Shown: positions 1 through 32,539 of the stretch, in pieces
Layout: each line of letters opens with the position of its first letter
Position numbering within the stretch: the first letter of the stretch is position 1
Assembly (NCBI GenBank): GCA_963735035.1
Contig: CAVTJJ010000004.1
Span: forward strand, 1,312,001-1,376,000
From: an uncultured candidate division Zixibacteria bacterium
GTDB taxonomy: Bacteria; Zixibacteria; MSB-5A5; GN15; FEB-12
Direction of reading: 5' to 3'
Length of the DNA stretch: 64,000 bases
Notes under the pieces: model-generated
What the model saw: the letters and a program-made list of their open reading frames with translations, nothing else
Database searches by the model: none
Told to the model about the DNA's origin: nothing
Position numbers and translations under genes: made by a program

Positions 1-2
1 AG

Positions 3-134
3 GTGAAGATGGAAATATCGGGCCCCCTGGCGAGTCGCCGCGATCTGGTCAAGCGGTTCAATCTTGAGGATGATTTCTACGGCACGCTCAAACGGGCCGA
101 CAAAATGGTTAAGCTTTTGAGAGGTTCTGTATGA
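3..134 (+). CDS. 3' end of a hypothetical protein running in from the window edge
   Basis: Open frame VKMEISGPL...LLRGSV* whose TGA overlaps the next ATG (ATGA at 131-134). Confidence 0.55.
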   Translation: MKMEISGPLASRRDLVKRFNLEDDFYGTLKRADKMVKLLRGSV

Positions 135-493
135 AAGCCACTATTGTAACTACCGCGCTACTTATTGCCGGGCTCGCCGATCGGGTCGATGCGGCCAACC
201 TGGCGGTCATTGCCAGCCCGCCGGCGTTCCTGAATTTGATCGTGCTCGGCCTGGCGGTTGGGGCCATCGTAATCGGCTTGCCGATGCTTCGGACGATCAA
301 AGGCGGATATCTGAGCCGTCCCTGGCAGTTGTTCCTCGCCGGTTTCGCATTGATGGCTCTGGCGCAACTTCTGGGACTCATCCGGACGTTGGAAATAGCG
401 GACATCCCGATGTGGATATCTCCTGCTCTTACGGCTGTCTGTGTGGGGGCGTTTTTCTACGCCGTATTTGAGACGAAAAAGGTGCTGGGATAA
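131..493 (+). CDS. Small multi-pass membrane protein, function unknown
   Basis: 120 aa with 3-4 hydrophobic segments; GAGG upstream. Confidence 0.7.
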   Translation: MKATIVTTALLIAGLADRVDAANLAVIASPPAFLNLIVLGLAVGAIVIGLPMLRTIKGGYLSRPWQLFLAGFALMALAQLLGLIRTLEIADIPMWISPALTAVCVGAFFYAVFETKKVLG

Positions 494-504
494 GCTGATT
501 TGTG

Positions 505-533
505 TTGACATAACCGCTTGGGAGATATATAAA
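505..533 (+). promoter_or_regulatory. sigma70-type promoter for the mgl/roadblock operon
   Basis: TTGACA-N17-TATAAA. Confidence 0.6.
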
Positions 534-598: not shown

Positions 599-1447
599 AT
601 GACGGTCAATGTCGAAATAGACAGCCGCATATTGAAGTGCCAGAAGATCTTGGAGATGGATCCCAACTCCCAGATCTTTGCGGCGCTGGCTGAGGCCTAT
701 CGGAAGAAGGGCGAGCTTGAAAAAGCATTTCAGGTTTGCCACAGCGGACTCCGCATTCATCCGAATTACGGCGCCGCGCATCTGGTAATGGCCAAAGTCA
801 ATCTCGATCGCGGTCTGTACGATTGGGCTGCGACCGAAGTGGAGAAAGCTCGTGAGGCCGGGGGCGACCTTCGCACAATCGAGTTGCTTTTGGCCGAGAT
901 CAATATCTACAAGGGCGAATTTCAAGCGGCGATCAAATCCCTCAAGCGACTGTCAACCTCCGATCCGGGCAACATGCACGTGAAGCGGCTTTTGGAAATT
1001 GCGACCCGGATACCGGAAGAGCAACAGGAGCAGACCGGCGAGCCGGCGGAAACGAAATCTCCCGACCCGGCCGTGATTCCTCAAGCGGAATCACCGAACC
1101 GCATCATACCGGCGGATCTGTTGGCGGAAGCGCTTCGCATTCGCGGTGTCGAAGGCGCTCTGTTTATCAACGCCGAAGGTCTCGTGATCGAATCCCGGTG
1201 GGAAGCCGGTGTCGACCAGACCACTTGTGGCGCGGTGATGGCGGAAGTGAATACGTTCGTCGAACAGGAATTGATGAAGATATCTTTCGGACGGGTGACG
1301 ACGGTTCTAATTGAAACTTCCACCCTGGTGTTTTATATCATGATCGTTCCGGGTGGGATGTTTTTGATAGCAGGCGGAAGCGGGATCAATCTGGGTTCGT
1401 TGCGGATGAAAATGGCCACGCTGTTGGATAGGGTTCAGACCAGCTAG
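599..1447 (+). CDS. TPR protein with C-terminal Roadblock/LC7 (MglB-like) domain
   Basis: N-terminal TPR-like helices (FAALAEAYRKKGELEKA; HPNYGAAHLVMAKV), Pro-rich linker, then roadblock signature GVEGALFINAEGLVI. Confidence 0.8.
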   Translation: MTVNVEIDSRILKCQKILEMDPNSQIFAALAEAYRKKGELEKAFQVCHSGLRIHPNYGAAHLVMAKVNLDRGLYDWAATEVEKAREAGGDLRTIELLLAEINIYKGEFQAAIKSLKRLSTSDPGNMHVKRLLEIATRIPEEQQEQTGEPAETKSPDPAVIPQAESPNRIIPADLLAEALRIRGVEGALFINAEGLVIESRWEAGVDQTTCGAVMAEVNTFVEQELMKISFGRVTTVLIETSTLVFYIMIVPGGMFLIAGGSGINLGSLRMKMATLLDRVQTS

Positions 1448-1458
1448 GTAGGGCGCAT

Positions 1459-2463
1459 ATGGAACTGACCGGTCAAATCAATCGTCGGATCATTATCTTC
1501 TCACTGGCGGCGATCATTCTGCCACTCGTGGCGTTTCCCGCCCGGCTGGGGACTGATCTGGCCAGGGCGGCGTTCATCAACGCCCTGTACGAAGTGGTCT
1601 TTTACGGGGCCGTACTCTTTGTCTTTCACCGCCGCACCACGCTGCTAAAGCTGGTTCAGGGAGCGGGCGTTTGTCTCGTTTACCGCCTGGCTCAGGGAGC
1701 CGCCTTCGGTCTCTTGATTGCTGCGATTCATTCCATGCAATTGAAAGCCTCGTTGTCTCTGGGGATGTCCGCCTATCTGCCGGCGATCTTCTTCCAAATC
1801 ATCCTCGCGCCGTTTGCTTTGAAGCCGGCGCTCGATCAGTTGTATGAAGAAAGCACTCCCCGGCAGCGCGCTTTGAACGCGCCGGCCATGAATGACCGCG
1901 CCGACATGAGGCGGACGTCACTGGCCGTATCGAGAGACAGGTCACACCAATCTGACGAAGATTCCGTTCCTCGTGCGTTCCGACCCATGCCGCGTCCGGA
2001 CAGTGCGAACTCGTCGCGGTCCATGGAATCGTCGACCGGTCACCTTCGAATCGATCAAAATGGGTTTGATCGCGCCGTGAGATACATCGGCGAACACGCC
2101 TCGGTTCATCTGGCGGTCGTGCTCGACAACGAAGGCTTGGTGTTGGGCCATTACCGGCGGGGAAACATCGAGCCGGAAGAATGGGCGCCGCTGGCCCTGC
2201 TTCTGGTGGATGGCGGTGATCGTGTCCTGGCGCGCGGTCATCTGAACGGGCTCGAAAAGATGGATCTGGTTCTGAAAGATAAACGTCTGATCGTGGCTCG
2301 TCCCGATGGTTGTCATTTGATGGTGCTGTCCGAGAGACATGAGGATGAGCTCCTGAATATTCGTATCAATCAGTCGCTCGACATGATTAACAAGTTTGTC
2401 GCCGAGCGTTACGGCGCGAAGTTGAACCCGAACGCGGAGAGAGTACATGTACCAAGTGCTTAG
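1459..2463 (+). CDS. Membrane protein with C-terminal Roadblock/LC7 domain
   Basis: About 4 N-terminal TM segments, Arg/Ser-rich linker, then VHLAVVLDNEGLVLG...LNIRINQ. Confidence 0.75.
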   Translation: MELTGQINRRIIIFSLAAIILPLVAFPARLGTDLARAAFINALYEVVFYGAVLFVFHRRTTLLKLVQGAGVCLVYRLAQGAAFGLLIAAIHSMQLKASLSLGMSAYLPAIFFQIILAPFALKPALDQLYEESTPRQRALNAPAMNDRADMRRTSLAVSRDRSHQSDEDSVPRAFRPMPRPDSANSSRSMESSTGHLRIDQNGFDRAVRYIGEHASVHLAVVLDNEGLVLGHYRRGNIEPEEWAPLALLLVDGGDRVLARGHLNGLEKMDLVLKDKRLIVARPDGCHLMVLSERHEDELLNIRINQSLDMINKFVAERYGAKLNPNAERVHVPSA

Positions 2464-2773
2464 CAATCTTAACAAGACTCCCGGGGTCACCGGATCGATG
2501 GTAGTCGGTAACGACGGCATCGTGATTGCCGCCGACATGGCTTCCGGTTTCGAGGGAGAAACGGTCGGGGCCCTGGCCGCTTCGATCACTTCCAACATCC
2601 AGAAATCGCTGGATCGGCTGGAGGCTACTCCCTGGGCTCAGGTGACAATCGAAGCCGACAGCGCCAAGTTGTTCTTTACCGATGCCGGTCTCGGTATACT
2701 GGTGGTCACTACCGAGAAAGTGGTGAACATCGGTTTGATCCGTCTGGAGATAAGAATGCGATCGACAAAATAA
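2447..2773 (+). CDS. Stand-alone Roadblock/LC7 protein; last residues probably frameshifted
   Basis: TPGVTGSMVVGNDGIVIA...VNIGLIRLEI; an alternate frame near 2753 continues NAIDKIK. Confidence 0.85.
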   Translation: MYQVLSNLNKTPGVTGSMVVGNDGIVIAADMASGFEGETVGALAASITSNIQKSLDRLEATPWAQVTIEADSAKLFFTDAGLGILVVTTEKVVNIGLIRLEIRMRSTK

Positions 2774-2815
2774 AACTGCCGTCCTAAACGGAGAGAGGAA
2801 TAGGACCGCTCAACT

Positions 2816-3895
2816 ATGGTATCAATCAACTACTCGGCCCGCGAGGTCTGCTGCAAGATCGTCTATTACGGTCCGGGACTGTCCGGCAAGACGACCAATC
2901 TGCAGTACGTCCATTCCCGGGTGCCGCAGAACACGCGAGGCAAGCTGATCTCGCTGGCGACCGAGGCCGACCGGACGCTGTACTTTGATTTCCTGCCGAT
3001 CAACATCGGCACGATCAACGACTTCCAGGCGAAGTTCCAGTTGTACACCGTCCCCGGCCAGGTCTACTACAACGCCACCCGCAAGCTGGTCTTGCGCGGC
3101 GTCGACGGTCTCGTCTTTGTGGCCGACAGTCAGCCCGACAAGATGGACGAGAACATCGAATCATTGGCCAACCTCGAAGATAACCTTCGGGAATACGGCT
3201 ACGACATGGCCCTGTTGCCGCTGGTGATACAGTACAACAAGCGCGATTTGCCCGGTGTCCTGAGTCTCGATGAACTCAACGCGCGGCTCAATCCGAGAGG
3301 GGTGCCGTTCTTCGAGGCGTCCGCTCCACAGGGCAAGGGCGTGTTCGATACTCTTAAGTTGATCATCAAACTCGTGCTCGACAAAGCCAAGGCGACCGGG
3401 GCTTCGGCGATGCCTCGTCGCACTGAAGCTGTCGCGGCGCCACCCGCCGCCGAGGCGCCGTATCCGTCGGTCGAACGAGTTCCGATCATGGCCCATGTCG
3501 AATCGGCTCCGGTGCAGATTCCGAAGCCGACACCACAACCGGTGGCCGCTTCGGCCAACTGGGAAGCGACCGCACAGGCGACTCCGACGGCCTGGGCCGG
3601 CGAGCATGAGGCTCATCCGCATGATCCGACCGCTTCCGAAGAGATGGGGGTTCGGCCGTATCCAGGCACGGATCGTGGCCACACCGGTGAGCTGCGTCGT
3701 ACCGGCCGTATAGGGCTGGGTGCGGTTACAAAGGAACTTCCCGCTGATTCGATAGGAAAGAATGTTAACTCCGAGGGTGCCGACCAGGTCCCGGGGATGT
3801 CATCGATGAACACACCGCAGATGGCTCCCTCTCTCAGGCGTCGCGGTCTGGCCAAGAAGCGCGGCTTCTTCAGACGCCTGTTCGGAATGAAATAG
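2816..3895 (+). CDS. mglA: MglA-family small GTPase with ~170-aa C-terminal extension
   Basis: KIVYYGPGLSGKTTNL, ADRTLYFDF, YTVPGQVYY, QYNKRD, EASA. Confidence 0.93.
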   Translation: MVSINYSAREVCCKIVYYGPGLSGKTTNLQYVHSRVPQNTRGKLISLATEADRTLYFDFLPINIGTINDFQAKFQLYTVPGQVYYNATRKLVLRGVDGLVFVADSQPDKMDENIESLANLEDNLREYGYDMALLPLVIQYNKRDLPGVLSLDELNARLNPRGVPFFEASAPQGKGVFDTLKLIIKLVLDKAKATGASAMPRRTEAVAAPPAAEAPYPSVERVPIMAHVESAPVQIPKPTPQPVAASANWEATAQATPTAWAGEHEAHPHDPTASEEMGVRPYPGTDRGHTGELRRTGRIGLGAVTKELPADSIGKNVNSEGADQVPGMSSMNTPQMAPSLRRRGLAKKRGFFRRLFGMK

Positions 3896-3913
3896 ATAGG
3901 TTTGGAGGACGTT

Positions 3914-4399
3914 ATGTCTGATGACGGTTTGATCATTTACGAAGAAGAAATCGCAACCATTGACACGCTTCTCAAGAAGATGTTGAAGGGGGCCGAGGCC
4001 AAGTGCGCGCTCCTCGTGGACAAGGATGGCCATCTGATTACGCGCCAGGGCTTCACCCATTCGCTCGACACCACGGCGCTTGCGGCGCTTCTGGCCGGGT
4101 CGTTCGCCTCGACGAAAGAGATCGCGCGTCTGGTCGGTGAGCCGGAATTCTCCGTGTTGTTTCACCAGGGCAAGAAAGACCACATCCACATGTCGATTGT
4201 GGGCGAACGGTCCATTCTGGTGGTGATCTTCGACGATCGCACCACGATCGGTATGGTGCGTCTGTATGCCAAGGAGACGTCGGAAGAATTGTCCCGGGTG
4301 TTTCGCACCCATACTGAGCGCAAACAGCCGAACGAGGCCCTGAGCGACGATTTCTCGGACAAGACGCAGGAAAGGCTCAACGACATTTTTCAGGACTGA
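3914..4399 (+). CDS. mglB: MglB GTPase-activating protein (Myxococcus-type, acidic C-terminal helix)
   Basis: IIYEEE..LLVDKDGHLI..DTTALAALLAG..GEPEFSVLFHQG..VIFDDRTTIGMVRL; GGAGGA RBS. Confidence 0.9.
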   Translation: MSDDGLIIYEEEIATIDTLLKKMLKGAEAKCALLVDKDGHLITRQGFTHSLDTTALAALLAGSFASTKEIARLVGEPEFSVLFHQGKKDHIHMSIVGERSILVVIFDDRTTIGMVRLYAKETSEELSRVFRTHTERKQPNEALSDDFSDKTQERLNDIFQD

Positions 4400-4480
4400 G
4401 TGACGCTTGTGTCCGTCCATTGCGGGTGCGTGGCTTCACGTGCAAACCGGTTACCGCTTGAATAAATGTAAAGATCACCT

Positions 4481-6185
4481 ATGTCTGTCGAACTCAGCGC
4501 CATTCTCGTAAAGGCAGGGAAGATTTCTCAGGAACAGGCCAATGCGGCGCTGGAACGTTCCAAGATATCCAAAGAGCAATTCTCTAAAGTCCTGGTCGAT
4601 ATGGGGGCGGTCACCTCGGAAGAAGAGGTCACCAGTTTTGTCGGCAAGCATCTCAAGATCGGCGCCCTGAGGCTGAGCGACGTCGAACTTAATCCCGAAA
4701 TCGTCAAGCTGATTCCGCTTGATATCGCCCGTAAATTCAAAGTCATCGCGATCAGCAAGATCGGCAAGACTCTACTCGTGGCGATCAGCGATCCGAACAA
4801 TATCTACGTCCTCGACGCCATCAAGTTCATAACCGGCTGCAATGTCCAGCCGGCCATCGCGCCCGAAAAAGCAATCGAAAAGGCGATCGAGCAGTATTAC
4901 ACCGATGCTGGCGCTCTCTCGGAAATCGTCAAGGGGATGGAAGACGATCCCGATCTCGAAGTCGTATCCGTGGAGGACGGGCCGTCGGAAACCGACCTGA
5001 TGTCGCAGATCCAGGACAAACCGCTGGTCAAGCTGGTCGATTCGATCATCGGCGATGCCATCCGGATGGGTGCTTCCGATATTCACTTCGAGATGTACGA
5101 AAAGCGGATACGTGTTCGGTATCGTATCGACGGTGAACTTCGGGAGATGGCCCCGCTGCCGTTCAAGTATCGGGCGGCGATTGTCTCGCGTATCAAGATC
5201 ATGGCCGAACTCGACATCTCGGAACGCCGCCTGCCGCAGGACGGACGCATCAAGATCAAGATCACCGGCCGCACGGTCGATCTTCGCGTCTCGGTCCTGC
5301 CGACAATTTTCGGCGAAAAAGTCGTGATGCGAATTCTCGATCCGAAGGCGCTGAAGATCGACATGACCCAACTCGGTTTCCGCCAGGAAGATCTCGACAA
5401 ATTTGCGGACAAGATTCACTCGCCCGTACGGGATCATTCTCGTGACCGGGCCGACCGGTTCGGGTAAAACGACGACGCTGTATTCGGCGCTTCAGCAGTT
5501 GAACACGATCGACGTGAATATCATGACCGCCGAGGACCCGGTGGAGTTCAACTTCGAGGGCATCAACCAGGTGGCGGTGAAATCGGAAATCGGCCTGACC
5601 TTTGCCGCGGCGCTTCAGGTCTTTCTTGCGACAGGACCCGGATATCATCATGGTCGGTGAAATTCGTGACTCCGAAACGGCCGAGATTGCCATCAAGGCC
5701 GCCCTTACCGGACACCTCGTGTTTTCGACCCTGCACACCAACGACGCTCCGTCGTCGGTCACGCGTCTTATCGATATGGGCGTGCCGAACTATCTCGTGG
5801 CCTCGGCAACCCAGTTGATCATGGCTCAGCGTATGTGCAAGAAGATCTGCCAGAAGTGCAAGGAAGAGGTCAACCTGACCGTCCGGAGCAGGTCGAGACG
5901 CCTGAAGATGCCCCCGGACATGCTCAAAGGTATCCGGGCATTTCAAGGGAAAGGGATGCAGCGCGTGCAACGATACCGGAAAGTCGGGACGAACCGGTAT
6001 CTACGAAGTTATGCCTATCACCTCGGCCCTTGAGGAATTGATCCTACAGGAAAGCCTCTGACACCGAGATACGCAGACTCGCCATGGAGGAGGGGATGTT
6101 TTCACTTCGTATGGCGGCAGTCGATAAAATGAAGCAGGGCATGATCAGTATCGAAGAAGTTTTTGCGGTCACTGGGACCAACTAA
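4481..6185 (+). CDS. pilB: Type IV pilus extension ATPase PilB, split by several frameshifts (probably sequencing errors)
   Basis: [60 protein letters not shown] in successive frames; TAA at 6183-6185. Confidence 0.9.
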
Positions 6186-6263
6186 GTCCGGCCACTTCTT
6201 GGTTTTCCGGCAGAATCCGCTGCCCATCAATCACTTATCATTGACAAGTAGGCTCTTTTCCGG

Positions 6264-6291
6264 TCAAGATTCGGCGATTTCTAGCCGATAT
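6264..6291 (+). promoter_or_regulatory. Putative sigma28/FliA-type promoter upstream of pilT
   Basis: TCAAGAT-N13-GCCGATAT; identical boxes and spacing recur at 26829-26856. Confidence 0.6.
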
Positions 6292-6350
6292 ACTGACAGT
6301 GGACCTTTATAGGTGTGAAGACTGTCCTTTTTCGGAATAGGAGATTGTCA

Positions 6351-7433
6351 ATGGTTTCGTTGCGCGAGCTTGCTGGATCAAATGGTTACGTATGGGGGCA
6401 TCCGACTTGCACTTGACCGTCGGGTCGCCGCCGGTCGTGCGTGTCGATGGCAAGCTTCAGAGAATGACCAGTACGACGTGCTCACCGGTGAAGAAACCAA
6501 GAAGCTCGCTTACTCCATGTTGAACGAGAAGCAGAAGCTCAAATTCGAACAGAATTGGGAACTGGATTTCTCGTTCGGTATCGAACAGTATGAGCCGTTT
6601 TCGCTGCAACATCTTCATGCAGCGCGGTAACGTGGCGGTCGTGCTGCGGCAGATTCCGTATAAGATGCAAGACCTTCGATCGAACTCGGCCTGCCCAAAG
6701 TGATCGCCGAATTCTCCAAGCTGCCGCGCGGTCTGGTGCTGGTAACCGGTCCGACCGGCTCGGGCAAGTCCACCACCCTGGCGGCGATTATCGACAAGAT
6801 CAACAAAGAGCGCCCGGTTCATATCATTACGGTGGAAGACCCGATTGAGTATTTGCACCGCCATCAGTTGGCGTTGATCAATCAGCGTGAAGTGTACTCC
6901 GACACCCCGTCGTTTGCGTCGGCGCTGAAGTACGCTCTCCGCGAGGATCCGGACGTAGTGCTGGTCGGTGAAATGCGCGATCTGGAAACGATCGAAGCGG
7001 CCCTTTCGATTTCGGAGACGGGTCACCTGGCGTTCGCCACGCTGCATACCAACTCCTGCGCCGAGACGATCAACCGTATCGTCGACGTATTCCCGACCAA
7101 CCAGCAGGAGCAGATTCGGGTGACGCTGTCGTTCACGCTACAGGCGGTGGTCTCACAGGTGTTGATCCCCAAGATCGGGGGCGGGCGAGTTCTGGCCATG
7201 GAGATCATGGTCGCCACGCCGGCGATGCGGGCGATCATTCGCGACGACAAGATCCACCAGTTGTACTCGATGATTCAGTCCGGACAGAAATACGGCATGA
7301 AGACGATGAACCAGTCGTTGTCGGAACTATACCAGGGTGGCAAGATTTCGCTGAACGATGCCATGGGCACAGTCACAACCCGCAGGAACTGGGCGAGATG
7401 CTTTCGCGTCAGAAAGCGCCGGCCTACACTTGA
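6351..7433 (+). CDS. pilT: Type IV pilus retraction ATPase PilT, frameshifted near both ends
   Basis: GASDLHLTVGSPPVVRVDG, GPTGSGKSTT, ITVEDPIE, ALREDPDVVLVGEMRD, AMRAIIRD (AIRNLIRE-like); AGGAG RBS. Confidence 0.9.
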
Positions 7434-7472
7434 TGCGGCGACGTGAGATAGGAACGAGAAAGGAATAGAGAT

Positions 7473-8672
7473 ATGCCAGTTTTCGAGTACAAAGGCAAGA
7501 CGCTGGCCGGGGCGGCCGTCCAGGGGATGATGAAAGCGAATACCCGCGCCGACCTTGAGCGGGTCCTCCGTCAGAACCGCGTCCTCGTATCTTCGATCAG
7601 CAAGCAGGCTCCCGAGATCAACATCAAGTTCGGCACCGGTATCAAGCGGGTCGAAATCTCCCGGTTTACGCGTCAGTTCGCGACCATGATCGGCGCCGGG
7701 TTGCCGATGGTGCAGTGTCTGGAGATTCTCGGGTCCCAGACCGAGAACAAGGAATTGTCCAAGATCGTAAACCAGGTTCGCGACGGCGTCCAGGGCGGTG
7801 CCACGCTTTCCGACGCCATGAAACGTCACCCCAAAATTTTCGATGAGTTGTACACGAACATGGTCGAAGCGGGTGAAGTCGGCGGTGCCCTCGATTCGAT
7901 TCTGGTCCGACTGGCCGTCTATCGCGAGAAATCGGATCAGCTCATCCGCAAAGTAAAAGGCGCTATGGTTTATCCGACCGTGGTTATGGCCGTCGCCGGA
8001 CTGGTGACCTTCGCCATGCTCACGTTTGTCGTGCCTACATTCGCCAAGATGTTCTCCGGCCTCGGCGCCGACCTTCCGGAACCGACCAAGATAGTGCTGG
8101 GGATATCGAATTTCCTGAAGGCCAATATTCTGTACATCTTTCTCGGTGTCGCCGGATTGTTCGTGGCCTTCATCTACTGGAAGAAAACGCCCACGGGCGG
8201 TATGGCCGTCGACAAGGGTATGTTGAAAGTCCCGGTTCTCGGCAACCTGATTCGCAAGTCGGCCGTCGCCCGCTTCACCCGTACGCTGGCGACCCTGCTG
8301 GCTTCAGGTGTCTCGATTCTGGAAGCGCTCGATATCACCGCCAAGACGGCCGGTAACCGGGTCGTGGCGAGAGCTATCAATCGCTCGGTGCTGGCCATTG
8401 CCGAAGGCGATACCATCACCGGTCCGTTGAAGGCGTCCGGCGTGTTCCCTCCGATGGTGACTCAGATGATCGGCGTTGGTGAAAAGACCGGCGGATTGGA
8501 CGACATGCTGAACAAGATCGCCGATTTCTACGACGAAGAAGTGGACGAGGCTGTCAGCGCTCTGACGTCGGTTATTGAGCCGATTATTATCTGTTTCCTG
8601 GGTGTAGTGATCGGTGGCATCATGATTGCCATGTATCTGCCGATGTTCGACATCATCGGGAAATTCAATTGA
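7473..8672 (+). CDS. pilC: Type IV pilus platform protein PilC
   Basis: FTRQFATMIGAGLP, MVEAGEVGGALD, GEKTGGLD, AMYLPMF. Confidence 0.95.
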   Translation: MPVFEYKGKTLAGAAVQGMMKANTRADLERVLRQNRVLVSSISKQAPEINIKFGTGIKRVEISRFTRQFATMIGAGLPMVQCLEILGSQTENKELSKIVNQVRDGVQGGATLSDAMKRHPKIFDELYTNMVEAGEVGGALDSILVRLAVYREKSDQLIRKVKGAMVYPTVVMAVAGLVTFAMLTFVVPTFAKMFSGLGADLPEPTKIVLGISNFLKANILYIFLGVAGLFVAFIYWKKTPTGGMAVDKGMLKVPVLGNLIRKSAVARFTRTLATLLASGVSILEALDITAKTAGNRVVARAINRSVLAIAEGDTITGPLKASGVFPPMVTQMIGVGEKTGGLDDMLNKIADFYDEEVDEAVSALTSVIEPIIICFLGVVIGGIMIAMYLPMFDIIGKFN

Positions 8673-8711
8673 CCGCCGGAAGACCGCTGCGATCTTAAGA
8701 GATAAAGGAAG

Positions 8712-8741
8712 AGCGGCCCGCCGGTGCGGGCCGCTTTGCTT
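8712..8741 (+). terminator. Hairpin between pilC and pilS (terminator or stabiliser)
   Basis: AGCGGCCCGC-CGGT-GCGGGCCGCT followed by TTGCTT. Confidence 0.5.
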
Positions 8742-8743
8742 AA

Positions 8744-10456
8744 ATGGACAAAACGCGCGTCCCGAACCAGCTCGGACTTTTTCTCCCGCTCCGATTGGCG
8801 ACGTACATGGTGCTTATTGCCATTGCGGTCGCCTGGATGCACGATCCGAAATATCTGCATTTTCCGGTTATCATCTATTCGCTCGTGACCCTGGCCTTTG
8901 CGGTCGGACTTGCCCTGGAACGGAAACTAGGCCTGAAGGGTGTTACGCGAGTCTTGACCGCCTTACAGTTCCTGATCGAAATCACGTTGGAATCCGGCAT
9001 CATCTACGTTACCGGCAACATCCACTCGCCATTTTCGGCGCTCTTCGTACTGACAATTGTTTCGGCAGCTCTGGTGTATCGGCTGGTGGGAACATTGGTG
9101 GTGGCGTCGATTGTCTCAGTCGCCTATGCTTTTGTCATCTGGCTCGGTCTTACCCAGGGCGCGGGTGACCTGAGCGTCCAGGCACTGAAGACGATATTCT
9201 CTTCGAATGACCTGGCCTTCTACGGCATACTGCTGCACATCCTGATATTCTATCTGACCGCCTTCGTCTCTGGATACCTGGCCGAACGACTGAGCAGCAA
9301 CGTGCGACAACTGCAGGACGCGTCCAGCGCTTTGAAACGAGCTCAGTTGGAGACGGACGACATCCTTCGCCATCTGAATTCAGGTCTGCTTACGGTGGAT
9401 GCTTCAGGTCATGTCATCTACTTCAACCGGGCTGCGGAAAAGATCCTCGGTTATCACGAAGAAAATGTGAGAGGAATGCCCTGTGTCGACGTCTTCTCCG
9501 AGCGAATGCCTGAATTGGCGGCCTGCCTGATGGACGGTGTCAGGTCACGCATGGGGTATCCTCGTCGTGAGCTAGAGATTAGGAATCAGGCCGCGAAGCA
9601 GGTGCCGCTGGGGTTGTCCACTTCGATTCTGACCGAGGACTCAGGCGAACTTCGGGGCGTCATAGCCATATTTTCGGATCTGACCGAAGCAAAGGAACTG
9701 GAAGCCAAGGTTCGCAAGAGCGACCGTCTGGCGGCGGTAGGCGAGCTGTCGGCATCGATTGCGCATGAAATCCGCAATCCGTTGGCCGCGATCTCGGGAT
9801 CGGTCGAGTTGCTCTCGCGCGAACTGGCCCTGGACGGGGAGAACCAGCGGTTGATGGCTCTCATTATGAAAGAATCCCAGCGTCTCAATCGCATTCTGAC
9901 CGATTTCCTGACCTACGCACGAATGGAGCGTCCAGCCTACAACAAGGTTGAGTTGTGTCATATCGTCGCCGATATCCGCGAGCTTCTCAAACGCCACGAA
10001 GCGGTGCCGGACAATGTGACCCTGCGCTTTGACACCGACGAGTCGTTTGCGTATGTGGTTGGGGACGAAGGGCTCGTGCGACAATTGGTTATGAATCTCG
10101 CCCTCAATGCCTGCGAGTCGTTCGACGGAAAATCCGGGGAAGTGGTCTTCCGTTTGGGGAGGATGGCCGGTAGCGGGACGGTCTGGCTGAGCGTCCGTGA
10201 CAACGGCCCCGGGATTGATCCGAAAATAGTCGATAAGATCTTCCAACCCTTCTTTTCCACCAAGAAAACCGGCACTGGTCTGGGGCTGGCGATTGTCCAT
10301 CGCATCTGCAACGCCCTGGGATTGAGGCTTCATCTCCACACCCGGCCCGGCCAGGGGACGACTTTCACGGTCGCTTTCACCAGCTACGCTCCTGGGAGCC
10401 CTGTCGCCGAAGGTCAGGTTCCTGATCCAGACTTCACCGAAATCGGGGTCCACTAG
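8744..10456 (+). CDS. pilS: PilS-like sensor histidine kinase (multi-TM, PAS, HisKA, HATPase)
   Basis: VTGNIHSPF TM motif, AHEIRNPL, NLALNA, DNGPGI, FFSTK, GTGLGL; follows pilC. Confidence 0.8.
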   Translation: MDKTRVPNQLGLFLPLRLATYMVLIAIAVAWMHDPKYLHFPVIIYSLVTLAFAVGLALERKLGLKGVTRVLTALQFLIEITLESGIIYVTGNIHSPFSALFVLTIVSAALVYRLVGTLVVASIVSVAYAFVIWLGLTQGAGDLSVQALKTIFSSNDLAFYGILLHILIFYLTAFVSGYLAERLSSNVRQLQDASSALKRAQLETDDILRHLNSGLLTVDASGHVIYFNRAAEKILGYHEENVRGMPCVDVFSERMPELAACLMDGVRSRMGYPRRELEIRNQAAKQVPLGLSTSILTEDSGELRGVIAIFSDLTEAKELEAKVRKSDRLAAVGELSASIAHEIRNPLAAISGSVELLSRELALDGENQRLMALIMKESQRLNRILTDFLTYARMERPAYNKVELCHIVADIRELLKRHEAVPDNVTLRFDTDESFAYVVGDEGLVRQLVMNLALNACESFDGKSGEVVFRLGRMAGSGTVWLSVRDNGPGIDPKIVDKIFQPFFSTKKTGTGLGLAIVHRICNALGLRLHLHTRPGQGTTFTVAFTSYAPGSPVAEGQVPDPDFTEIGVH

Positions 10457-10529
10457 TCTCGTTTGGCCTTGATTTTGTCTCCAGGTTGTATAAGTTGCGT
10501 GTTCGTTCTCGTTTTGGATGGAGTAAAGA

Positions 10530-13437: not shown

Positions 13438-13509
13438 GTGTCCGCCTGCTCCCTAAAGTCAGATCATTAGCGCTTAACAAGTGCATTCGCACGCCTTATA
13501 TTGTCACCC

Positions 13510-26192: not shown

Positions 26193-26720
26193 ATGGTCAT
26201 GAACCGGAAGAACGAAACACCGTCGATTCAGAATGGGTTTACCCTGATTGAACTGATGGTGGTCGTGCTCATTTTTGGCGTCTTGTCGGCTCTGGCCGCT
26301 CCAACGTTTCAGCGGTCGTATGACGGCTTTAAGTTTCACGAGGGCGAACGTTCCGTCACTTCCTCATTGAAGAAGGCCCGCTCTTTCTCCGTGAGCAGCA
26401 AGGCGCCGGTGGGGGTTCATTTCAATAGCGGCTCCCGCGTTGTTACGATATTCAAGAATACGACCAATCCGTCGCAGACCTCGTTTGAGGACACCGACTC
26501 CGTCTATTCGTCAGATACCCTCCCGTCCGATTTCTCCTATGTCTATGCCGACATGGGAAACAGCGCGGTTGTCTTTCAGCCCAACGGGTCTGCAACGTAC
26601 TCTGGATCGGGAATGGTATTTTTGTTAGGCGAAACCAACAAACTGACGGCTACTTTCACTATTAGCATCCTGGCTTCTACAGGTCGGGTCAGCTCGTACT
26701 CTCATTTCTACAACTGGTAG
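26193..26720 (+). CDS. Type IV pilin-like protein (FimT/GspH class)
   Basis: G/FTLIELMVVVLIFGVL; later LKKARSFSV, VVFQPNGS, STGRV. Confidence 0.85.
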   Translation: MVMNRKNETPSIQNGFTLIELMVVVLIFGVLSALAAPTFQRSYDGFKFHEGERSVTSSLKKARSFSVSSKAPVGVHFNSGSRVVTIFKNTTNPSQTSFEDTDSVYSSDTLPSDFSYVYADMGNSAVVFQPNGSATYSGSGMVFLLGETNKLTATFTISILASTGRVSSYSHFYNW

Positions 26721-26828
26721 TAGGAGCCTTCCGGCCCCAAAAAAGGCCAAAATATAGCGTTTGACCTCCCCGTCCCCCGGGGAGGTCGTTTCCGGCGGGT
26801 TCGATTCCTTAAAGACTTCAGATTTTCC

Positions 26829-26856
26829 TCAAGATACTGTAGGGGCGGGCCGATAT
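26829..26856 (+). promoter_or_regulatory. Putative sigma28/FliA-type promoter upstream of pilM
   Basis: TCAAGAT-N13-GCCGATAT. Confidence 0.6.
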
Positions 26857-27023
26857 GAAGACTATCGGCCCCGAACCATGGCTGGTGGTCTGTACTAAGG
26901 TTCACCAGGTCAGGAGCCGAGGCCCGTCGTTGAGCCCCGATATTTCAGGCACCGGCTCGACAAAGGCAAAGTCGGGATGGACATGATTTTGAAGAACAGG
27001 TACACACAAATAAAGAGAAACTC

Positions 27024-28076
27024 ATGATCTTCTCAGGCAGACGAAAAAGCGCAGTGGGGTTGGACGTCGGCTCCAATTCCGTCAAGCTGGTCAAGCTCGA
27101 GCATGGCAGGGATGGCTATACGGTCTCAGCGATAGGGATCCGCGAATTGCCGCCCGAGGCCATCGTCGGCGACGAGATAAGGGATCGCGAAGCCGTCATC
27201 TTCAACATCCAGTCGCTGATCGACCAGACCGATCCCAAGATTAAGGAAGTAGTGGTCTCGGTATCCGGTCACAGTGTCATCACCGACCGCTTCACGATCG
27301 ATAAGAAAACCGGTCCGGAAGCGGAGCAGGCGATCTTGTTCGAGACCGAACAACGCGCCCCGTTTGACGTTGACGACGTCAGTCTGGATTACCACATCAT
27401 AAAGACCGACGACGACATTAATAAGATGGACGTCCTCCTGGTCGCGGCTCGCAAGGAATACCTGCGGACATACCTGGACCTAATTGAAGATTGTGGGCTC
27501 CAGCCGGTGGTGGTCGACGACGACGCGTTTGCCGTGCTAAACGCTTACGAGGCCAACTACGATATCGACCCGACCAAGGTAACAGCACTGGTCAACATCG
27601 GTTACGATGTCACCAATATCACCTACCTCTCGGAAGGGCTGTTTGCGGCCACTCGCGACGTTTCGGCCGGTACGCGCGAAATATTCGAAGCGGTCAAGAA
27701 AGAGTTCCGTCTGAATCCGGAACTGACGGCTAAGGCGCTCAAGGGTGAAATGAGCGATTCGATCGATCAGGATATGTTCAAGGCGACCGTCATGTCGGCG
27801 GCCGACGAATTGATGTCCGGTATCGAGTTGGCGTTCTCATACTTCCGCTCCCAGACCAAGATTGAAAATATCGACTGGATCGTTCTGTCAGGTGGCGGGG
27901 CTTTGATCCCCTATCTGCCGGAATTCCTGCAGTCAAAGATAAATATCCCGCTGGAACTGGCTAACCCGCTTCGCAACCTCGACTACGATCCTGAGCTGTT
28001 CCAGTTTGTTCAGCCGGAAAAGATCGCGCCGTTGTTGACGGTTTCGGTCGGCCTGGCCATGCGAAAGAGTAAGTGA
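27024..28076 (+). CDS. pilM: Type IV pilus assembly protein PilM
   Basis: VGLDVGSNSVK, VLLVAA, LSGGGA, VGLAMR. Confidence 0.93.
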   Translation: MIFSGRRKSAVGLDVGSNSVKLVKLEHGRDGYTVSAIGIRELPPEAIVGDEIRDREAVIFNIQSLIDQTDPKIKEVVVSVSGHSVITDRFTIDKKTGPEAEQAILFETEQRAPFDVDDVSLDYHIIKTDDDINKMDVLLVAARKEYLRTYLDLIEDCGLQPVVVDDDAFAVLNAYEANYDIDPTKVTALVNIGYDVTNITYLSEGLFAATRDVSAGTREIFEAVKKEFRLNPELTAKALKGEMSDSIDQDMFKATVMSAADELMSGIELAFSYFRSQTKIENIDWIVLSGGGALIPYLPEFLQSKINIPLELANPLRNLDYDPELFQFVQPEKIAPLLTVSVGLAMRKSK

Positions 28077-28087
28077 GGCACGGCACC

Positions 28088-28837
28088 ATGATAGAAATAA
28101 ATCTACTGCCAAAAGATCATCGGAAGGGAACCGGCGCCCTTCAGTTCGGGAAGACCGGCATCTATGTCGCCTCGGCTGCAATCGGTGTCGTGCTCATGCT
28201 GGCGGCCATCACGTTCTATCAGATGAGCCAGTTGGGCAGTCTCAAATCCGACATCGAACGCGCCAACCAGCGGGCCGAAATGCTTCGCGACGATATCCGC
28301 GTGGTGGATGCCCTTACCGACGTCAAAGACAAGATCCATCGCCGCATCAGCGCTGTCGAAAAACTCGACCGCCATCGCTCCGCCTGGGTGAGAATCCTCG
28401 AAGAAGTCTCACGCAATATGCCGGAGTTCGTCTGGCTCGATCAGTTCCGGGAACAACCGCTCGACGCAAAAGAACCGGCCGAAAAGGGCAACAAAGGGAA
28501 GAATGAGAAGGCCGCCGACAAGAAGGACGAGAAGACCGCTGAAGTGAAAACAACCGAAACGTACGAACCGCCATCACAGCGGAACGTCGAGATCAAAGGT
28601 TTCGCCTTCACGCTCAACGCTCTTGCCGCCACCATGATTAAGATGATGCGCTCCGAGTATTTCGATAAAGTCGAGTTGATCGACTCCCGGGACACCCTGT
28701 ACGGCGGTGAAAAGGCTTATATGTTCTCGCTGTCGGCCAACGTGCAGTACCTCTCCGACGAGGAGCTGCGGGCCCGGGTCGCTCAGAATCAAGAAGTAGT
28801 CGATTCCACCGCCACCAGTCACGCGACTCTGAATTAG
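28088..28837 (+). CDS. pilN: Type IV pilus assembly protein PilN
   Basis: MIEINLLP motif, TM, coiled coil, MPEFVWL. Confidence 0.9.
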   Translation: MIEINLLPKDHRKGTGALQFGKTGIYVASAAIGVVLMLAAITFYQMSQLGSLKSDIERANQRAEMLRDDIRVVDALTDVKDKIHRRISAVEKLDRHRSAWVRILEEVSRNMPEFVWLDQFREQPLDAKEPAEKGNKGKNEKAADKKDEKTAEVKTTETYEPPSQRNVEIKGFAFTLNALAATMIKMMRSEYFDKVELIDSRDTLYGGEKAYMFSLSANVQYLSDEELRARVAQNQEVVDSTATSHATLN

Positions 28838-28850
28838 GGAAGGATGTCCT

Positions 28851-29483
28851 ATGGATTTGAAAGATTCAAAAACTCAGAAGATCGTGATCGCGGCGCTGGT
28901 GTTCTTCGTAATCGTCTATTTCTGGCACAGCCGGCTGTATTCCAACTACAACAGCCAGATCAATACCCAGCGCCAGGAATTTGAGACCATCACGACCGAT
29001 CTGCGCAATGTCGAGATGAAAGCCAAGTCGCTCGACGCGCTCAAGGTCGAGTATGCCGATCTGATCGATCGCTACCACGAGATCGAAGCGCTGCTTCCGG
29101 AAGTGAAGCAGGTACCGTCGATACTGGTGCAGCTCCACACGGCGTCGTCGATAACGGGCACCCGGATCACCAAAATCCACCCGCTGCCGATCGAGTCGCA
29201 GGAGTTTTACGATATTGCGGCCTTCGAAATCGAAATTACCGGCACCTATCACGATTTTGGCAAGTTCGCCAGCTACGTGGCCAATTTTCCGTTCATCGCC
29301 AACATGATGGATGTGCAACTGAAGGCCATGAAGCATCCCGGCGCGAAAGCGCGGAATGAAGCCGAGGAGCCGGTGGGCGAGGTGGTTGATGTCGGCCGCA
29401 AGGCTGCCAGTATAACCGCCACATTTACGCTTTCGACGTATTACGTCAAAGAGAATGAACGGCTCGCGGAACTGACGCTGTAG
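28851..29483 (+). CDS. pilO: Type IV pilus assembly protein PilO
   Basis: TM, coiled coil, LLPEVKQVP, GTYHDFGKF. Confidence 0.9.
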   Translation: MDLKDSKTQKIVIAALVFFVIVYFWHSRLYSNYNSQINTQRQEFETITTDLRNVEMKAKSLDALKVEYADLIDRYHEIEALLPEVKQVPSILVQLHTASSITGTRITKIHPLPIESQEFYDIAAFEIEITGTYHDFGKFASYVANFPFIANMMDVQLKAMKHPGAKARNEAEEPVGEVVDVGRKAASITATFTLSTYYVKENERLAELTL

Positions 29484-29497
29484 GAAACGGAGATGTC

Positions 29498-31219
29498 ATG
29501 AAGAGAATCGCTGTCATAGCAATCATCGGATGGCTCCTGCTCGCGGGCTTTACCTGGGCGTCCGAGGTGACCAATGTGGCCCTCAACTACCAGGACGGTA
29601 GCACGGTTGCGCGAATCGATATCAAGGGGCCGGTCCGCTTTGTTCATCAAACCGAGGTGCCCAAAGACGGCCGCCCGGATCGGGTGATTGTCGACGTCTT
29701 GTCGGCCACGCACGCCCTCGGTGCGAAAGCATTCCTCAATCTGCCGGCCTGTGTCGTCACCGGAATCCGCAGCAGCCAGTACGCCGTCAGCCCTGAGAAG
29801 ATCGTCCGCATCGTGTTCGATCTCGGCACGACGCCGTTATACCAGATCGATTCTGACGACCACAGCATAACCTTGAAGTTCAGCCACAAAGAGCCGAGCA
29901 GCTTCACCTCGTGGTCTTCCAATAGCGGTTCGGCCGGCGCCTCCCCCGCGACGGCTGATTTGCCGGTCATCGAAAAGCCGGCTGCGCTTTCTATTACACC
30001 TGCGACCGTTGCCGCCCGAAATGAAATCATCGAGAAAGACCGCGTAGAAAGTCTGTCCACCGCCGCGAGCCAAAAGCCGCGCGTCGAGACGCCGGCGTCA
30101 AAGGCCGATGAGGCGACTCCTCTTGAGGCTCCCATTGCAAAGAATCTTAGCGGCCTGGCTTTCTCTGAAGACTGGGGTTCGCCACAGGTTTGGAAACCGA
30201 AGGACTTTACTGCGTTTCCGTCGGCCATTCCCCAGGTAGAACCTCAAGCCGTAGCTCCGGCTCCGGCGCCGGTTCCGACGAGCGTCGTAGTAGCAGAATC
30301 AGAGCCGGTTGAACCGGATGTGACCGCTCCGACACCTGAAGAACAGAAGATTGTGGAGCAGCCAGAAGTTGTTCCTGAGGCCGAGCAGCACCAGGAAACC
30401 CTGGCAGTGGCGCAGCCTGAAGCTGTCTCTGCAGAACAGCCGGGTAATGAAGAACCGGACTTCCCGCCGATGGAGACGTTTGATTTCCCGGTACAGGATT
30501 TTCCGGCCACCAGCCCGATGACGGCTTCTGTCGACGACGAGCCGGTCGCTACCGCGACTCCGCAGCCTCAAGTTACTCAACCCGCTCCGACCAACGACAG
30601 CGCCGAGCCTACGCCGGAAGCTGTGTCGGTGAAGCCCGTTGAGACGCCTGTTCAGAATGATACGAATGAAGCTGGGCCGACTGCGGCTACCGGTGAAGAG
30701 AAAGCGAATATTCTCGACGAGGCTGATTTCAAACCGGCCGTCGAGTTGCCGGCTACGGTCAAGCCTGAAGACTTGAATAAGATAGCTGCGGTTGATGATT
30801 CAACGTTCAAGAGTGACGAGAACGCGCAGCGTACTACGTCCCGATTCCGTCGCGACGTGCAGTCTGACAAGATCCGCGGTACCATGGTCGCCGAATTCCC
30901 GCAGCGCCTGGTGATCCAGTATCAGGCCCAGGATCAGCGGGATCCGTTTGATCCGTTAATTGACGATAGCAAGAATTTCAACAGCCCGGTCGAAAACCGC
31001 ATTCCTAACGTCGAAGGCTTGAAGCTGGTTGGTATTCTCGAATCAGAATCAGGCAACAACCGAGCCCTGTTCGAAGACAAGGGCGGTTTCAGCTACATCC
31101 TGCAGAGCGGTGACAAGGTTCGTAATGGTTATGTCCTCCGGGTGGAACTCGATCAGGTCTATTTCCAAATATTCGAGTACGGTTGGTCGCGTACCGTCGC
31201 ACTTACGATGGAATACTAA
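29498..31219 (+). CDS. AMIN domain + long Pro/Glu-rich linker + PilP-like C-terminal domain
   Basis: PDRVIVDV..IRSSQY..VRIVFDL (AMIN); QRDPFDPL..LKLVGIL..ALFED..GDKV (PilP-like); lies between pilO and pilQ. Confidence 0.75.
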   Translation: MKRIAVIAIIGWLLLAGFTWASEVTNVALNYQDGSTVARIDIKGPVRFVHQTEVPKDGRPDRVIVDVLSATHALGAKAFLNLPACVVTGIRSSQYAVSPEKIVRIVFDLGTTPLYQIDSDDHSITLKFSHKEPSSFTSWSSNSGSAGASPATADLPVIEKPAALSITPATVAARNEIIEKDRVESLSTAASQKPRVETPASKADEATPLEAPIAKNLSGLAFSEDWGSPQVWKPKDFTAFPSAIPQVEPQAVAPAPAPVPTSVVVAESEPVEPDVTAPTPEEQKIVEQPEVVPEAEQHQETLAVAQPEAVSAEQPGNEEPDFPPMETFDFPVQDFPATSPMTASVDDEPVATATPQPQVTQPAPTNDSAEPTPEAVSVKPVETPVQNDTNEAGPTAATGEEKANILDEADFKPAVELPATVKPEDLNKIAAVDDSTFKSDENAQRTTSRFRRDVQSDKIRGTMVAEFPQRLVIQYQAQDQRDPFDPLIDDSKNFNSPVENRIPNVEGLKLVGILESESGNNRALFEDKGGFSYILQSGDKVRNGYVLRVELDQVYFQIFEYGWSRTVALTMEY

Positions 31220-31237
31220 TGAAAGGCTGGTAGGAAT

Positions 31238-32539
31238 ATGTGGTGGAGAGACCAATTTGCTTCGTGGAAACAAGCCGGCGTCATCCTGTCGGTTTTGTTG
31301 ATGCTGTCGCCGGTGATGGCGCAGAATCAGCCGAAAGATCCTTCGGTGCCGATCAAAAACGTCGAGTTCCAGGGCAGTGACATCCGTGCCGCCCTGACTT
31401 TCCTCGCCGACTATGGCAACGTCAACGTTGTGATTGCACCGGATGTAACGGGTACCGTTACGATCCGACTTCGCGACGTCAACTGGCGCGACGCCATGGA
31501 CATCATCGGCCGGACCTACGACCTGTCGATCGTCGATGACCAGGCGGGATATGTCCGCGTGCTAAAGTCGGCGACCTATCGTGAGGAACTGACCAAGAAG
31601 GCCGAACACGACGCCACCCAGCAGAAACTCGTGCCGCTGGAGACCAAGATCATCAAGATCAACAATTCCGTGGCGCAGGACATGCTCGAAACGGTGAAGA
31701 ACCTGCTTACGGAACGCGGTAGAGTGGTGGCCGATCTCCGTTCCAACTCTCTGGTGCTCCAGGAAGTGCCGGACAATATCCCGGCCGTGTTGGACTACAT
31801 TACGCGGCTGGATTCGCCGTCCAAGCAGATCAAGATTTCCGCCCAGCTTCTGGAGATCTCCTCCGACGGGTTGCAGGAGCTAGGTATTAACTGGATGGTC
31901 AACAGCAATTTCTCCTCTACCGGCGGCAATACCAACGGCGATCAGACGGGCCAGGTCATGGCCGATATCGGCTCCACCGACCCGATTGGTCGCTATACCG
32001 TTAAGGTGGCCGGTAGTGACTGGAATCTCAATGCGTTCGTAGAAGCCGTCGTAAAGAGCGGCAAGGGCAAGATTATCGCCCATCCGGAGATTACCACGGT
32101 CGAAAACAAAGAAGCCCGAATTCAGATGGGCTCGAAGGTGCCGGTCAAGCAGTTCGATGAATCAGGTAACGTCGTGATCAAGTTCGAGCAGGTCGGCACG
32201 ATTCTCACGGTTACTCCCCATATCACGGCCGAGAACCAGGTGCTGATGCACCTCAAACCGGAACGTTCGACTTTCGAATATGACGCCGCCGGCGTGATTA
32301 TCAATACCAATAACGCCGAAACCAACGTCATCGTGGCCAACGGCCAGACGGCTGTTATTGGCGGCCTGACTACTCAGGACGAATCCGACACCGAATACGG
32401 CGTGCCGGTTCTCAAGGATATTCCGCTCCTGGGCCAGCTGTTCAAGTTTTCCACCAAGAACTGGGAGAGCAAGGACCTGGTGATTTTTGTGACTCCGACC
32501 GTAGCCGAAGGTGACCTGGCGTCGAACCAGAACCCGTAA
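31238..32539 (+). CDS. pilQ: Secretin PilQ, short form without AMIN domains
   Basis: N0 FQGSDIR..VTIRLRDVNW, N domain DLRSNSLV, secretin GQTAVIGGL, GVPVLKDIPLLGQLF. Confidence 0.9.
   Translation: MWWRDQFASWKQAGVILSVLLMLSPVMAQNQPKDPSVPIKNVEFQGSDIRAALTFLADYGNVNVVIAPDVTGTVTIRLRDVNWRDAMDIIGRTYDLSIVDDQAGYVRVLKSATYREELTKKAEHDATQQKLVPLETKIIKINNSVAQDMLETVKNLLTERGRVVADLRSNSLVLQEVPDNIPAVLDYITRLDSPSKQIKISAQLLEISSDGLQELGINWMVNSNFSSTGGNTNGDQTGQVMADIGSTDPIGRYTVKVAGSDWNLNAFVEAVVKSGKGKIIAHPEITTVENKEARIQMGSKVPVKQFDESGNVVIKFEQVGTILTVTPHITAENQVLMHLKPERSTFEYDAAGVIINTNNAETNVIVANGQTAVIGGLTTQDESDTEYGVPVLKDIPLLGQLFKFSTKNWESKDLVIFVTPTVAEGDLASNQNP

Follow-up and report, generated by a model that had tools for sequence, protein, structure and literature searches.

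In Myxococcus, Bdellovibrio and Thermus, pili are under the control of the small GTPase MglA. In model bacteria MglA reaches the cell pole through partner proteins, and its mode of action on PilB, the pilus extension ATPase, is described as open (PMC7519303; PMC11580455). The polarity module of Myxococcus xanthus consists of MglA, MglB, MglC, RomR/RomX and RomY, and the proteins SgmX, FrzS and SopA act on PilB. The Roadblock protein MglB has GTPase-activating protein (GAP) activity and exchange activity through its C-terminal helix (PMC6785124; PMC13408092), and Myxococcus RomY confines the GAP activity to one pole. Among known systems, seven cases of MglA coupled to MglB and an MglC-type paralogue have been described (PMC4316618), and PATAN genes are found near Group 1 mglA genes (PMC4316618; PMC4719450); other related literature includes PMC9481161 and PMC12024867. 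In the available text of Wuichet and Sogaard-Andersen (PMC4316618) and McLoon et al. (PMC4719450), the systems have at most two Roadblock proteins per MglA and variable neighbourhoods, and neither pil linkage nor an MglA tail is described. Here we analyzed a stretch of 64,000 nucleotides (nt), referred to as the window (contig CAVTJJ010000004.1, positions 1,312,001-1,376,000, forward strand; assembly GCA_963735035.1), in which mglA, mglB and three more Roadblock genes directly precede pilB. The nearest database records for the locus belong to Zixiibacteriota or uncultured Ignavibacteria(les) and the group was read as Zixibacteria, which agrees with the opinion in an earlier note on this DNA that the lineage is not myxobacterial.

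An open reading frame (ORF) scan and Pfam searches bore out the genes and their order, all on the + strand. The module includes a TPR-Roadblock fusion (282 amino acids, 599..1447; Pfam TPR and Robl_LC7, alignments); a Roadblock protein with a transmembrane (TM) part, TM-Roadblock (334 amino acids, 1459..2463), in which about four hydrophobic segments are joined by a variable linker to a C-terminal Roadblock domain; a stand-alone Roadblock protein, the most MglC-like of the four (2447..2773), the end of which is shortened by a one-base loss near 2755; a Group 1 MglA (2816..3895), recognized by its motifs and by alignment, in which the GTPase domain (residues 1-195) is followed by a low-complexity linker and a basic amphipathic C-terminal tail (3854..3892) that resembles the MinD membrane-targeting sequence; and a canonical MglB with an acidic C-terminal helix (3914..4399; the start was set by alignment, the ORF scan having given 3902). 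Gene calls and Pfam agree with the earlier note that these genes are tightly packed and that pilB (4481..6185) begins 81 nt after mglB. We lean slightly towards a reading in which a membrane-tethered MglA/MglB switch would decide the site of pilus extension by PilB, most likely a cell pole, and would do so without RomR, a part of the Myxococcus reversal circuit. The polar role is suggested by analogy with Myxococcus and Thermus.

The module shares with that of Myxococcus xanthus a Group 1 MglA, about 61% identical in the G domain, an MglB with a C-terminal helix, an MglC-like Roadblock, a RomY-like domain and a TPR protein, and in Myxococcus mglC and sgmX are linked to pil genes. It differs in that mglA precedes mglB, both right before pilB, and in that MglA is tailed. 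Three Roadblock proteins are added, one membrane-integral and one fused to TPR, and the RomY domain is fused to a Roadblock-like domain, whereas the RomR C-terminus (in 101 genomes) and SgmX (in the source genome of the window) were not found. A Myxococcus-type genome has the genes mglC, efp, accB, accC and sgmX after pilQ, and mglBA on another contig. The contrast with Myxococcus is thus weaker than the earlier note made it, since mglC follows pilQ and sgmX stands four genes further. In Thermus thermophilus, MglA and MglB affect the unipolar localisation of the pili and are dispensable for pilus formation. The Thermus MglB differs in having no C-terminal helix (PMC13408092).

The arrangement was surveyed in 151 genomes drawn across Zixibacteria, with some tests carried out on 101 of them, and compared in 50 loci that include some duplicates. 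All 50 loci share the order TM-Roadblock, Roadblock, mglA, mglB, pilB, and in 49 TPR-Roadblock heads the module, the remaining locus being cut by a contig end. A TM-Roadblock orthologue was present in 149 of the 151 genomes, and in 144 of the 149 it shares the strand of pilB and lies 1.8-2.5 kb upstream of it; four of the other five have pilB on another contig and one has no pilB match. The linkage to pilB, which the earlier note had proposed to look for in relatives, is therefore conserved and is not due to chance. One genome (G006) lacks the module and a pilB orthologue but has a RomY-like gene, which suggests an assembly gap.

The distance between mglB and pilB was 15-204 nt in 51 loci, and the gaps of 15-18 nt found in three of them suggest a single transcript. 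The link holds across 18 families, also where the peptidyl-prolyl isomerase (PPIase) gene found downstream is gone, and two loci (L082 and L173) in which pilT-pilC-pilS moved away still have pilB next to the module. The tie of the module to pilB is firmer than its tie to pilT-pilC-pilS. These data bear on a different proposal, namely that the switch serves a general role in signalling or at an envelope site (growth pole, division, secretion) and that the module stands before pilB through inherited gene order, without acting directly on the motor. The conservation of gene order beyond pili, with murJ and comEC upstream and the PPIase and CTP-transferase-like genes downstream in many loci, is consistent with that proposal, as is the existence of related Gemmatimonadota and Planctomycetota blocks that are not beside pilB. 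However, a link to pilB that survives 18 families even when pilT-pilC-pilS has moved or the PPIase gene is gone, and intergenic gaps short enough for one transcript, speak against it, and we consider a general switch very improbable.

The most distinctive feature of the Zixibacteria MglA, overlooked in the earlier note, is its C-terminal tail. The GTPase itself is conventional. Group 1 MglA proteins have a P-loop, an intrinsic Arg finger by the G2 Thr, a TVPGQ G3 and an NKxD G4 (PMC4316618), and residues G24-K25-T26, R53-T54, T78-Q82 and N141-K142-D144 were invariant in 36 of 36 aligned rows, so by sequence the protein is an intact Group 1 GTPase. It has the G2 Arg and TVPGQ, and not the combination of no Arg and GTPGQ that marks Group 2 of the actinobacterial conservons (Cvn). 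Past residue 195, a low-complexity linker leads to a basic, Phe/Trp-rich end, an extension of 120-285 residues that gives Zixibacteria MglAs a total length of 314-480, whereas the MglAs of Myxococcus, of Geobacter and of most Gemmatimonadota have a length of about 195 residues. A basic amphipathic tail was detected in 60 of 61 distinct Zixibacteria MglAs as compared to 100 of 2435 ORF ends of the source genome; a strict version of the motif was found in 41 of the 61 and in only one of the 2435 ends, that one being MglA. The mean best hydrophobic moment was 0.57 (0.59 for the window protein), and the membrane tag of E. coli MinD (PMC5471200) is a close match to the tail. Both MinD and this MglA are P-loop NTPases ending in a short, basic, amphipathic, Phe-rich helix, but MinD is a dimerising ATPase, whereas in MglA a long linker joins the helix to a Ras-like GTPase. 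Judging from its sequence, MglA seems to carry its own membrane anchor.

Long MglAs with a basic amphipathic end were also seen outside Zixibacteria, in Deferrisomatales (L112:5799-6908) and Chitinivibrionales (L122:1360-2745). In two Planctomycetota loci (L091:9869-11017 and L105:10001-11272), mglB follows an mglA gene whose product ends in a hydrophobic stretch resembling a tail anchor, and the former locus has a PATAN-beta-propeller gene upstream.

MglB adjoins mglA, groups with the Myxococcus and Geobacter MglB proteins on a 99/98 branch, and has a C-terminal segment that aligns with the Myxococcus MglB helix. The surfaces through which Myxococcus MglB and MglC meet comprise K14, R115 and K120 of MglB and F25, D26, I28 and K104, R106, R110 of MglC, and the modelled contact residues are R115 (MglB) and D26 and I28 (MglC) (PMC10329633). 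In the Zixibacteria MglB, R115 was kept in 35 of 35 aligned rows and position 14 was K or R in 23 of the 35. Among the four Roadblock profiles MglC scored best, though at only 13.5 bits, on that of the stand-alone Roadblock, which keeps MglC D26, I28 and R106 in 35 of 35 rows and has K or R at position 110 in all of them.

Pfam recognized three of the four Roadblock domains, those of TPR-Roadblock (Robl_LC7, 27 bits versus a cut-off of 23, with Pfam TPR also matched), the stand-alone Roadblock (52.8 bits) and MglB (55.1 bits), and a six-frame search of the source genome found only these three at Pfam level. TM-Roadblock remained below the cut-off (no match at an E value of 0.01; 14.2 bits for the domain alone). 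Nonetheless, its profile matched that of the stand-alone Roadblock at 97.9%, its best match to a solved Roadblock had an E value of 7e-9, and the model of the domain, with a predicted local distance difference test score of 90, overlaid on 9jue (Z 18.7, root-mean-square deviation [rmsd] 1.6, 117 aligned) and on MglB 6hjm (Z 17.2, rmsd 1.9, 120 aligned). The best structural matches included Asgard Roadblocks and LAMTOR2. Because of the profile match, the match to solved Roadblocks and the model overlay, TM-Roadblock is regarded as a true Roadblock despite the missing Pfam match. Thus the extra domains proposed in the earlier note are Roadblocks, two of them by Pfam and that of TM-Roadblock by profile and predicted structure, while the Robl_LC7 and TPR models it had suggested for confirmation detected three Roadblocks and the TPR domain and left TM-Roadblock under the cut-off. 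At the N-terminus of TM-Roadblock, the protein encoded in the window contains four hydrophobic segments; of 32 aligned rows, 27 contain three or four. No Pfam family matched this TM domain, and its Atlas matches were all below 0.9; a few were to ECF S-component-like clusters, which we take as a lead only.

In a tree of the Roadblock domains MglB was canonical and the other three types formed separate old groups; with 117 columns and long branches, the deep relationships were not resolved. Four separate Roadblock lineages kept side by side, one of them membrane-integral and encoded by a gene that overlaps that of the stand-alone Roadblock by 17 nt, invite the idea of one hetero-oligomeric, Ragulator-like membrane scaffold that, together with the GTPase, would place pili through a Min-like pattern and with no fixed landmark. 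The MinD-like tail of MglA and the failure to find RomR are compatible with this idea, and the MglB system has been likened to Ragulator (PMC13408092). However, the characterised bacterial MglB and MglC are homodimers (PMC10329633), ten genomes have a TM-Roadblock without the TM part, and a common fold is no proof of a common mechanism. Such a scaffold is, in our opinion, quite unlikely. The Ragulator-Rag and Asgard sets resemble the Zixibacteria module in that a small GTPase is combined with a membrane anchor and several kinds of Roadblock, but here the GTPase is MglA rather than Rag and a transmembrane anchor forms part of a Roadblock protein, so that the relation is one of resemblance and not of membership. 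We regard as doubtful the proposal of an independent eukaryote-like platform, in which a tailed GTPase and a membrane-anchored hetero-oligomer of four or five Roadblocks would self-organise and place the pilus motor without the RomR landmark.

Of the Myxococcus accessory proteins, RomY had been taken as absent after a single-sequence search, a conclusion overturned when five weak matches were followed up. The matches are proteins of 204-227 amino acids in which a RomY-like domain at the N-terminus is fused to a Roadblock-like domain at the C-terminus. The profile of this family matched RomY at 95.2% and 94.0%, the C-terminal domain matched the Roadblock profile of TPR-Roadblock at 95%, and the family profile matched a solved Roadblock with an E value of 4e-5. 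In the reciprocal direction, the sole match of the profile in a Geobacter genome was RomY (E value of 2.8e-8). A fold search of the RomY-like protein placed Roadblocks at the top with Z of at most 7.4 (rmsd 4.7, 103 aligned), a level that common arrangements also reach, and the Roadblock assignment of the C-terminal domain rests more on the profiles than on this search. The fusion was found in 148 of the 151 genomes; it is lacking in G111, which has pilB but no module, and this joint absence of fusion and module counts in favour of the preferred reading. In the source genome its gene (G000:C3:215574-216257, - strand, equal to L191:7575-8258) follows a ribonucleotide reductase gene and is not linked to the module. 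In 13 of 30 loci from several families, a gene for a protein of 245-255 amino acids with a Roadblock-like start, possibly a sixth Roadblock type, lies directly 3' of the RomY-like gene (for example L192:8329-9081, L193:7003-7743, L194:3752-4492 and L195:5829-6584); in additional loci it is cut by the locus end, and it is not downstream of the RomY-like gene of the source genome.

The 60-residue RomR C-terminus was found in none of 101 genomes, in a search that detected three of five controls and could miss a diverged form, and it gave nothing in the source genome. For SgmX, a TPR effector of about 1060 amino acids, the source genome yielded only short TPR-level matches (best E value of 6e-5), and the profile of the TPR domain of TPR-Roadblock had 22 matches in the Myxococcus-type genome, none of them at sgmX. 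Therefore, the accessory parts differ from those of Myxococcus, as the earlier note had claimed. The idea that the TPR domain is a fragment of SgmX was unsupported by these searches, and the idea that it is RomY was dropped, Myxococcus RomY being a different, non-TPR domain. The findings suggest that the RomY-like protein works without RomR, and the fusion extends RomY past the RomR-containing lineages where it was first found.

The block does not begin at position 599, the start given in the earlier note, but further upstream, with a gene for a PATAN (DUF4388) protein of 412 amino acids (DUF4388, 108 bits). This gene starts 1.1 kb before the window, ends at 134 (1..134, + strand), is preceded by murJ and comEC, and was found in 62 of 63 Zixibacteria loci. 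Only DUF4388 was matched by Pfam in the Zixibacteria protein, with no receiver domain. PATAN domains bind PilB1 and PilC in Synechocystis (bioRxiv 2021.06.11.447907), and the cyanobacterial PatA-type regulators PixE and PixG share with this protein a PATAN domain as candidate link to PilB/PilC, the difference being the receiver domain. The next gene (131..493, + strand), whose start overlaps the PATAN stop by 4 nt, encodes a 120-amino-acid membrane protein with three hydrophobic segments; it matched no Pfam family, and a profile search detected it in all of 13 further loci. A sigma-70-like promoter (TTGACA, 17 nt, TATAAA; 505..533, + strand) precedes the TPR-Roadblock gene. A TTGAC element within 110 nt past the upstream stop was conserved in 35 of 38 loci, which suggests that the Roadblock genes have their own promoter, separate from comEC-PATAN. 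A scan with the promoter consensus gave no excess over shuffles (8 vs 7.4); it did not list the 505..533 element because it needs a final T. With the PATAN gene upstream, the RomY-like fusion encoded on another contig and the pilMNOPQ cluster some 16 kb downstream, the idea of a self-contained switch put forward in the earlier note is not supported.

Taken together, the components suggest the following sequence of steps. The amphipathic tail would attach MglA to the inner membrane by a long and flexible tether, and MglB would turn MglA off with the help of the RomY-like protein encoded elsewhere. The stand-alone Roadblock may hold MglB as MglC does, and TM-Roadblock could take the role of RomR by seating the inhibitory group at the membrane. 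At sites of lasting MglA-GTP, the signal would be relayed to PilB/PilC by the PATAN protein, the TPR domain or both. The steps of MglA tethering and of inactivation by MglB and the RomY-like protein are the better supported; the Roadblock seat and the relay are the weakest. A complex prediction for the MglA G domain and the TPR domain with GTP and Mg scored 0.08 relative to a mark of 0.32, and speaks neither for nor against an interaction.

Several observations weigh against this scheme. In MglB, K120 is not kept: position 120 is E or D in 35 of 35 rows, the residue before it being K or R in all 35. The stand-alone Roadblock falls outside the MglB clade, long branches left its placement relative to MglC unresolved in the tree, and MglC F25 and K104 are not kept in its 35 aligned rows. 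The RomY-like profile missed Myxococcus RomY at an E value of 0.001. The TM part of TM-Roadblock is absent in 10 of 149 genomes, from families f9 and f14, which have a short form with an open frame of at most 179 amino acids; the anchor is therefore not essential. One genome (G111), with no module and no Roadblock or RomY-like gene at all, keeps pilB-pilT-pilC-pilS. In Gemmatimonadota, a PATAN/TPR-Roadblock/Roadblock/mglB/mglA block is found among cheA, cheC, cheR, cheD and cheB, 2.6 Mb from pilB, and thus has no fixed tie to pili. Finally, comEC was located within 3.5 kb upstream of the PATAN gene in 51 of 55 loci with room for it, which points to DNA uptake.

The last observation leads to the alternative that the pili under control of the switch serve DNA uptake or adhesion and not directed movement; the switch would gate or place them by turning on their assembly where the ComEC channel lies, with no front-rear reversal. 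The comEC gene upstream of PATAN is the only comEC match in the source genome, RomR was not found, CheA was detected in just 61 of 101 genomes compared to a near-universal module, and the title of a Thermus paper ties MglA/MglB to natural competence. Yet a conserved promoter stands between comEC-PATAN and the Roadblock genes, the pairing of murJ and comEC may reflect no more than synteny, and a RomY-like protein, whose Myxococcus counterpart acts in confining GAP activity to one pole, is retained. We consider this alternative unlikely and continue to favor the positioning of PilB, most likely at a pole. The source genome has a cheA gene at C4:1493836.

The core of the module predates Zixibacteria and is wired to different neighbours in other lineages, as related sets exist in Gemmatimonadota, Geobacter and the Myxococcus-type genome. 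No pilB orthologue adjoined mglA in 50 other MglA loci, many of which have short flanks; one has another secretion-type ATPase nearby and one has a pilC-like gene 8 kb off, on the other strand. Geobacter has, downstream of pilQ and past pilMNOPQ-aroCKB, a TPR gene (L151:7462-8801) whose product is homologous to the TPR domain of TPR-Roadblock and which is directly followed by an MglC-like gene; TPR-Roadblock may have arisen by fusion of two such genes. A Gemmatimonadota locus (L130:2121-15761) has the order cheA, cheC, a 900-amino-acid TPR gene, PATAN, TPR-Roadblock, Roadblock, mglB and mglA, followed by genes for a DnaA-type ATPase domain and PATAN and by cheR, cheD and cheB. The block was also seen in L125, L133 and L094, and such genomes can have a separate mglBA-type MglB.

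The family of every part was already known, as was MglA with two Roadblocks and PATAN neighbours (PMC4316618; PMC4719450). A literature search, with supplementary tables and most subscription papers outside its scope, gave no account of the operon or of an MglA membrane tail, and it likewise brought up no set of four Roadblocks, no membrane-integral Roadblock, no direct linkage to pilB and no RomY fusion. Across nearly the whole phylum, the switch, its candidate adaptors and the motor are encoded together, which provides a short list of small proteins for reconstitution. If the reading is true, the tailed MglA and the membrane-integral Roadblock would be a bacterial parallel to eukaryotic membrane-bound small GTPases and Roadblock scaffolds. 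The module is also a concrete lead on movement or DNA uptake in Zixibacteria.

The pilus genes follow on the + strand in the order pilB, pilT (retraction ATPase; 6351..7433; Pfam and comparison with relatives), pilC (platform protein; 7473..8672; Pfam) and a gene for a PilS-like sensor kinase (8744..10456; 6TM_PilS, PAS, HisKA and HATPase domains). The order given in the earlier note was therefore correct, but pilB and pilT are not intact in this assembly. Comparison with a genome of the same genus showed six frame-breaking indels in pilB, about seven in pilT and one near the end of the stand-alone Roadblock gene; some 13 small indels cluster at 5423-7370, with clean flanks. Both genes are intact in most relatives (562-582 amino acids for PilB). 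Silent and replacement changes numbered 102 and 28 in the 3' part of pilB and 140 and 26 in pilT, and there were no nonsense substitutions. Because nonsense changes are lacking, the excess of silent changes is as in intact parts and the relatives are intact, the frameshifts are probably assembly errors, and true decay of pilB and pilT is less likely. The region 5423-7370 is likely unpolished assembly, and other genes look split at about 13500-15300 and 53500-55200. A TTGACA hexamer is present in the pilB-pilT gap (6241-6246), and pilT-pilC-pilS may have its own promoter.

No pilR was found by Pfam after the PilS-like kinase gene at the locus, where a PPIase gene is next. A 599-amino-acid PPIase and a CTP-transferase-like membrane gene (8744-12966, including the kinase) follow the PilS-like kinase in many relatives. 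A separate cluster on the + strand, with a pilin-like gene and pilM-pilN-pilO, a 573-amino-acid protein and a secretin (26193..32539), completes the pilus machine. The 573-amino-acid protein (29498-31216), between pilO and the secretin, had no Pfam match at an E value of 1e-5 and occupies the slot where pilP and the N-terminus of PilQ would be expected. Elsewhere, the source genome has a second PATAN-like protein as well as two further PilB/PilC/secretin-type systems and another PilT-like ATPase (C3:799008-799961; C4:1615555-1617312; C2:132566-137225; C4:571725-572936).

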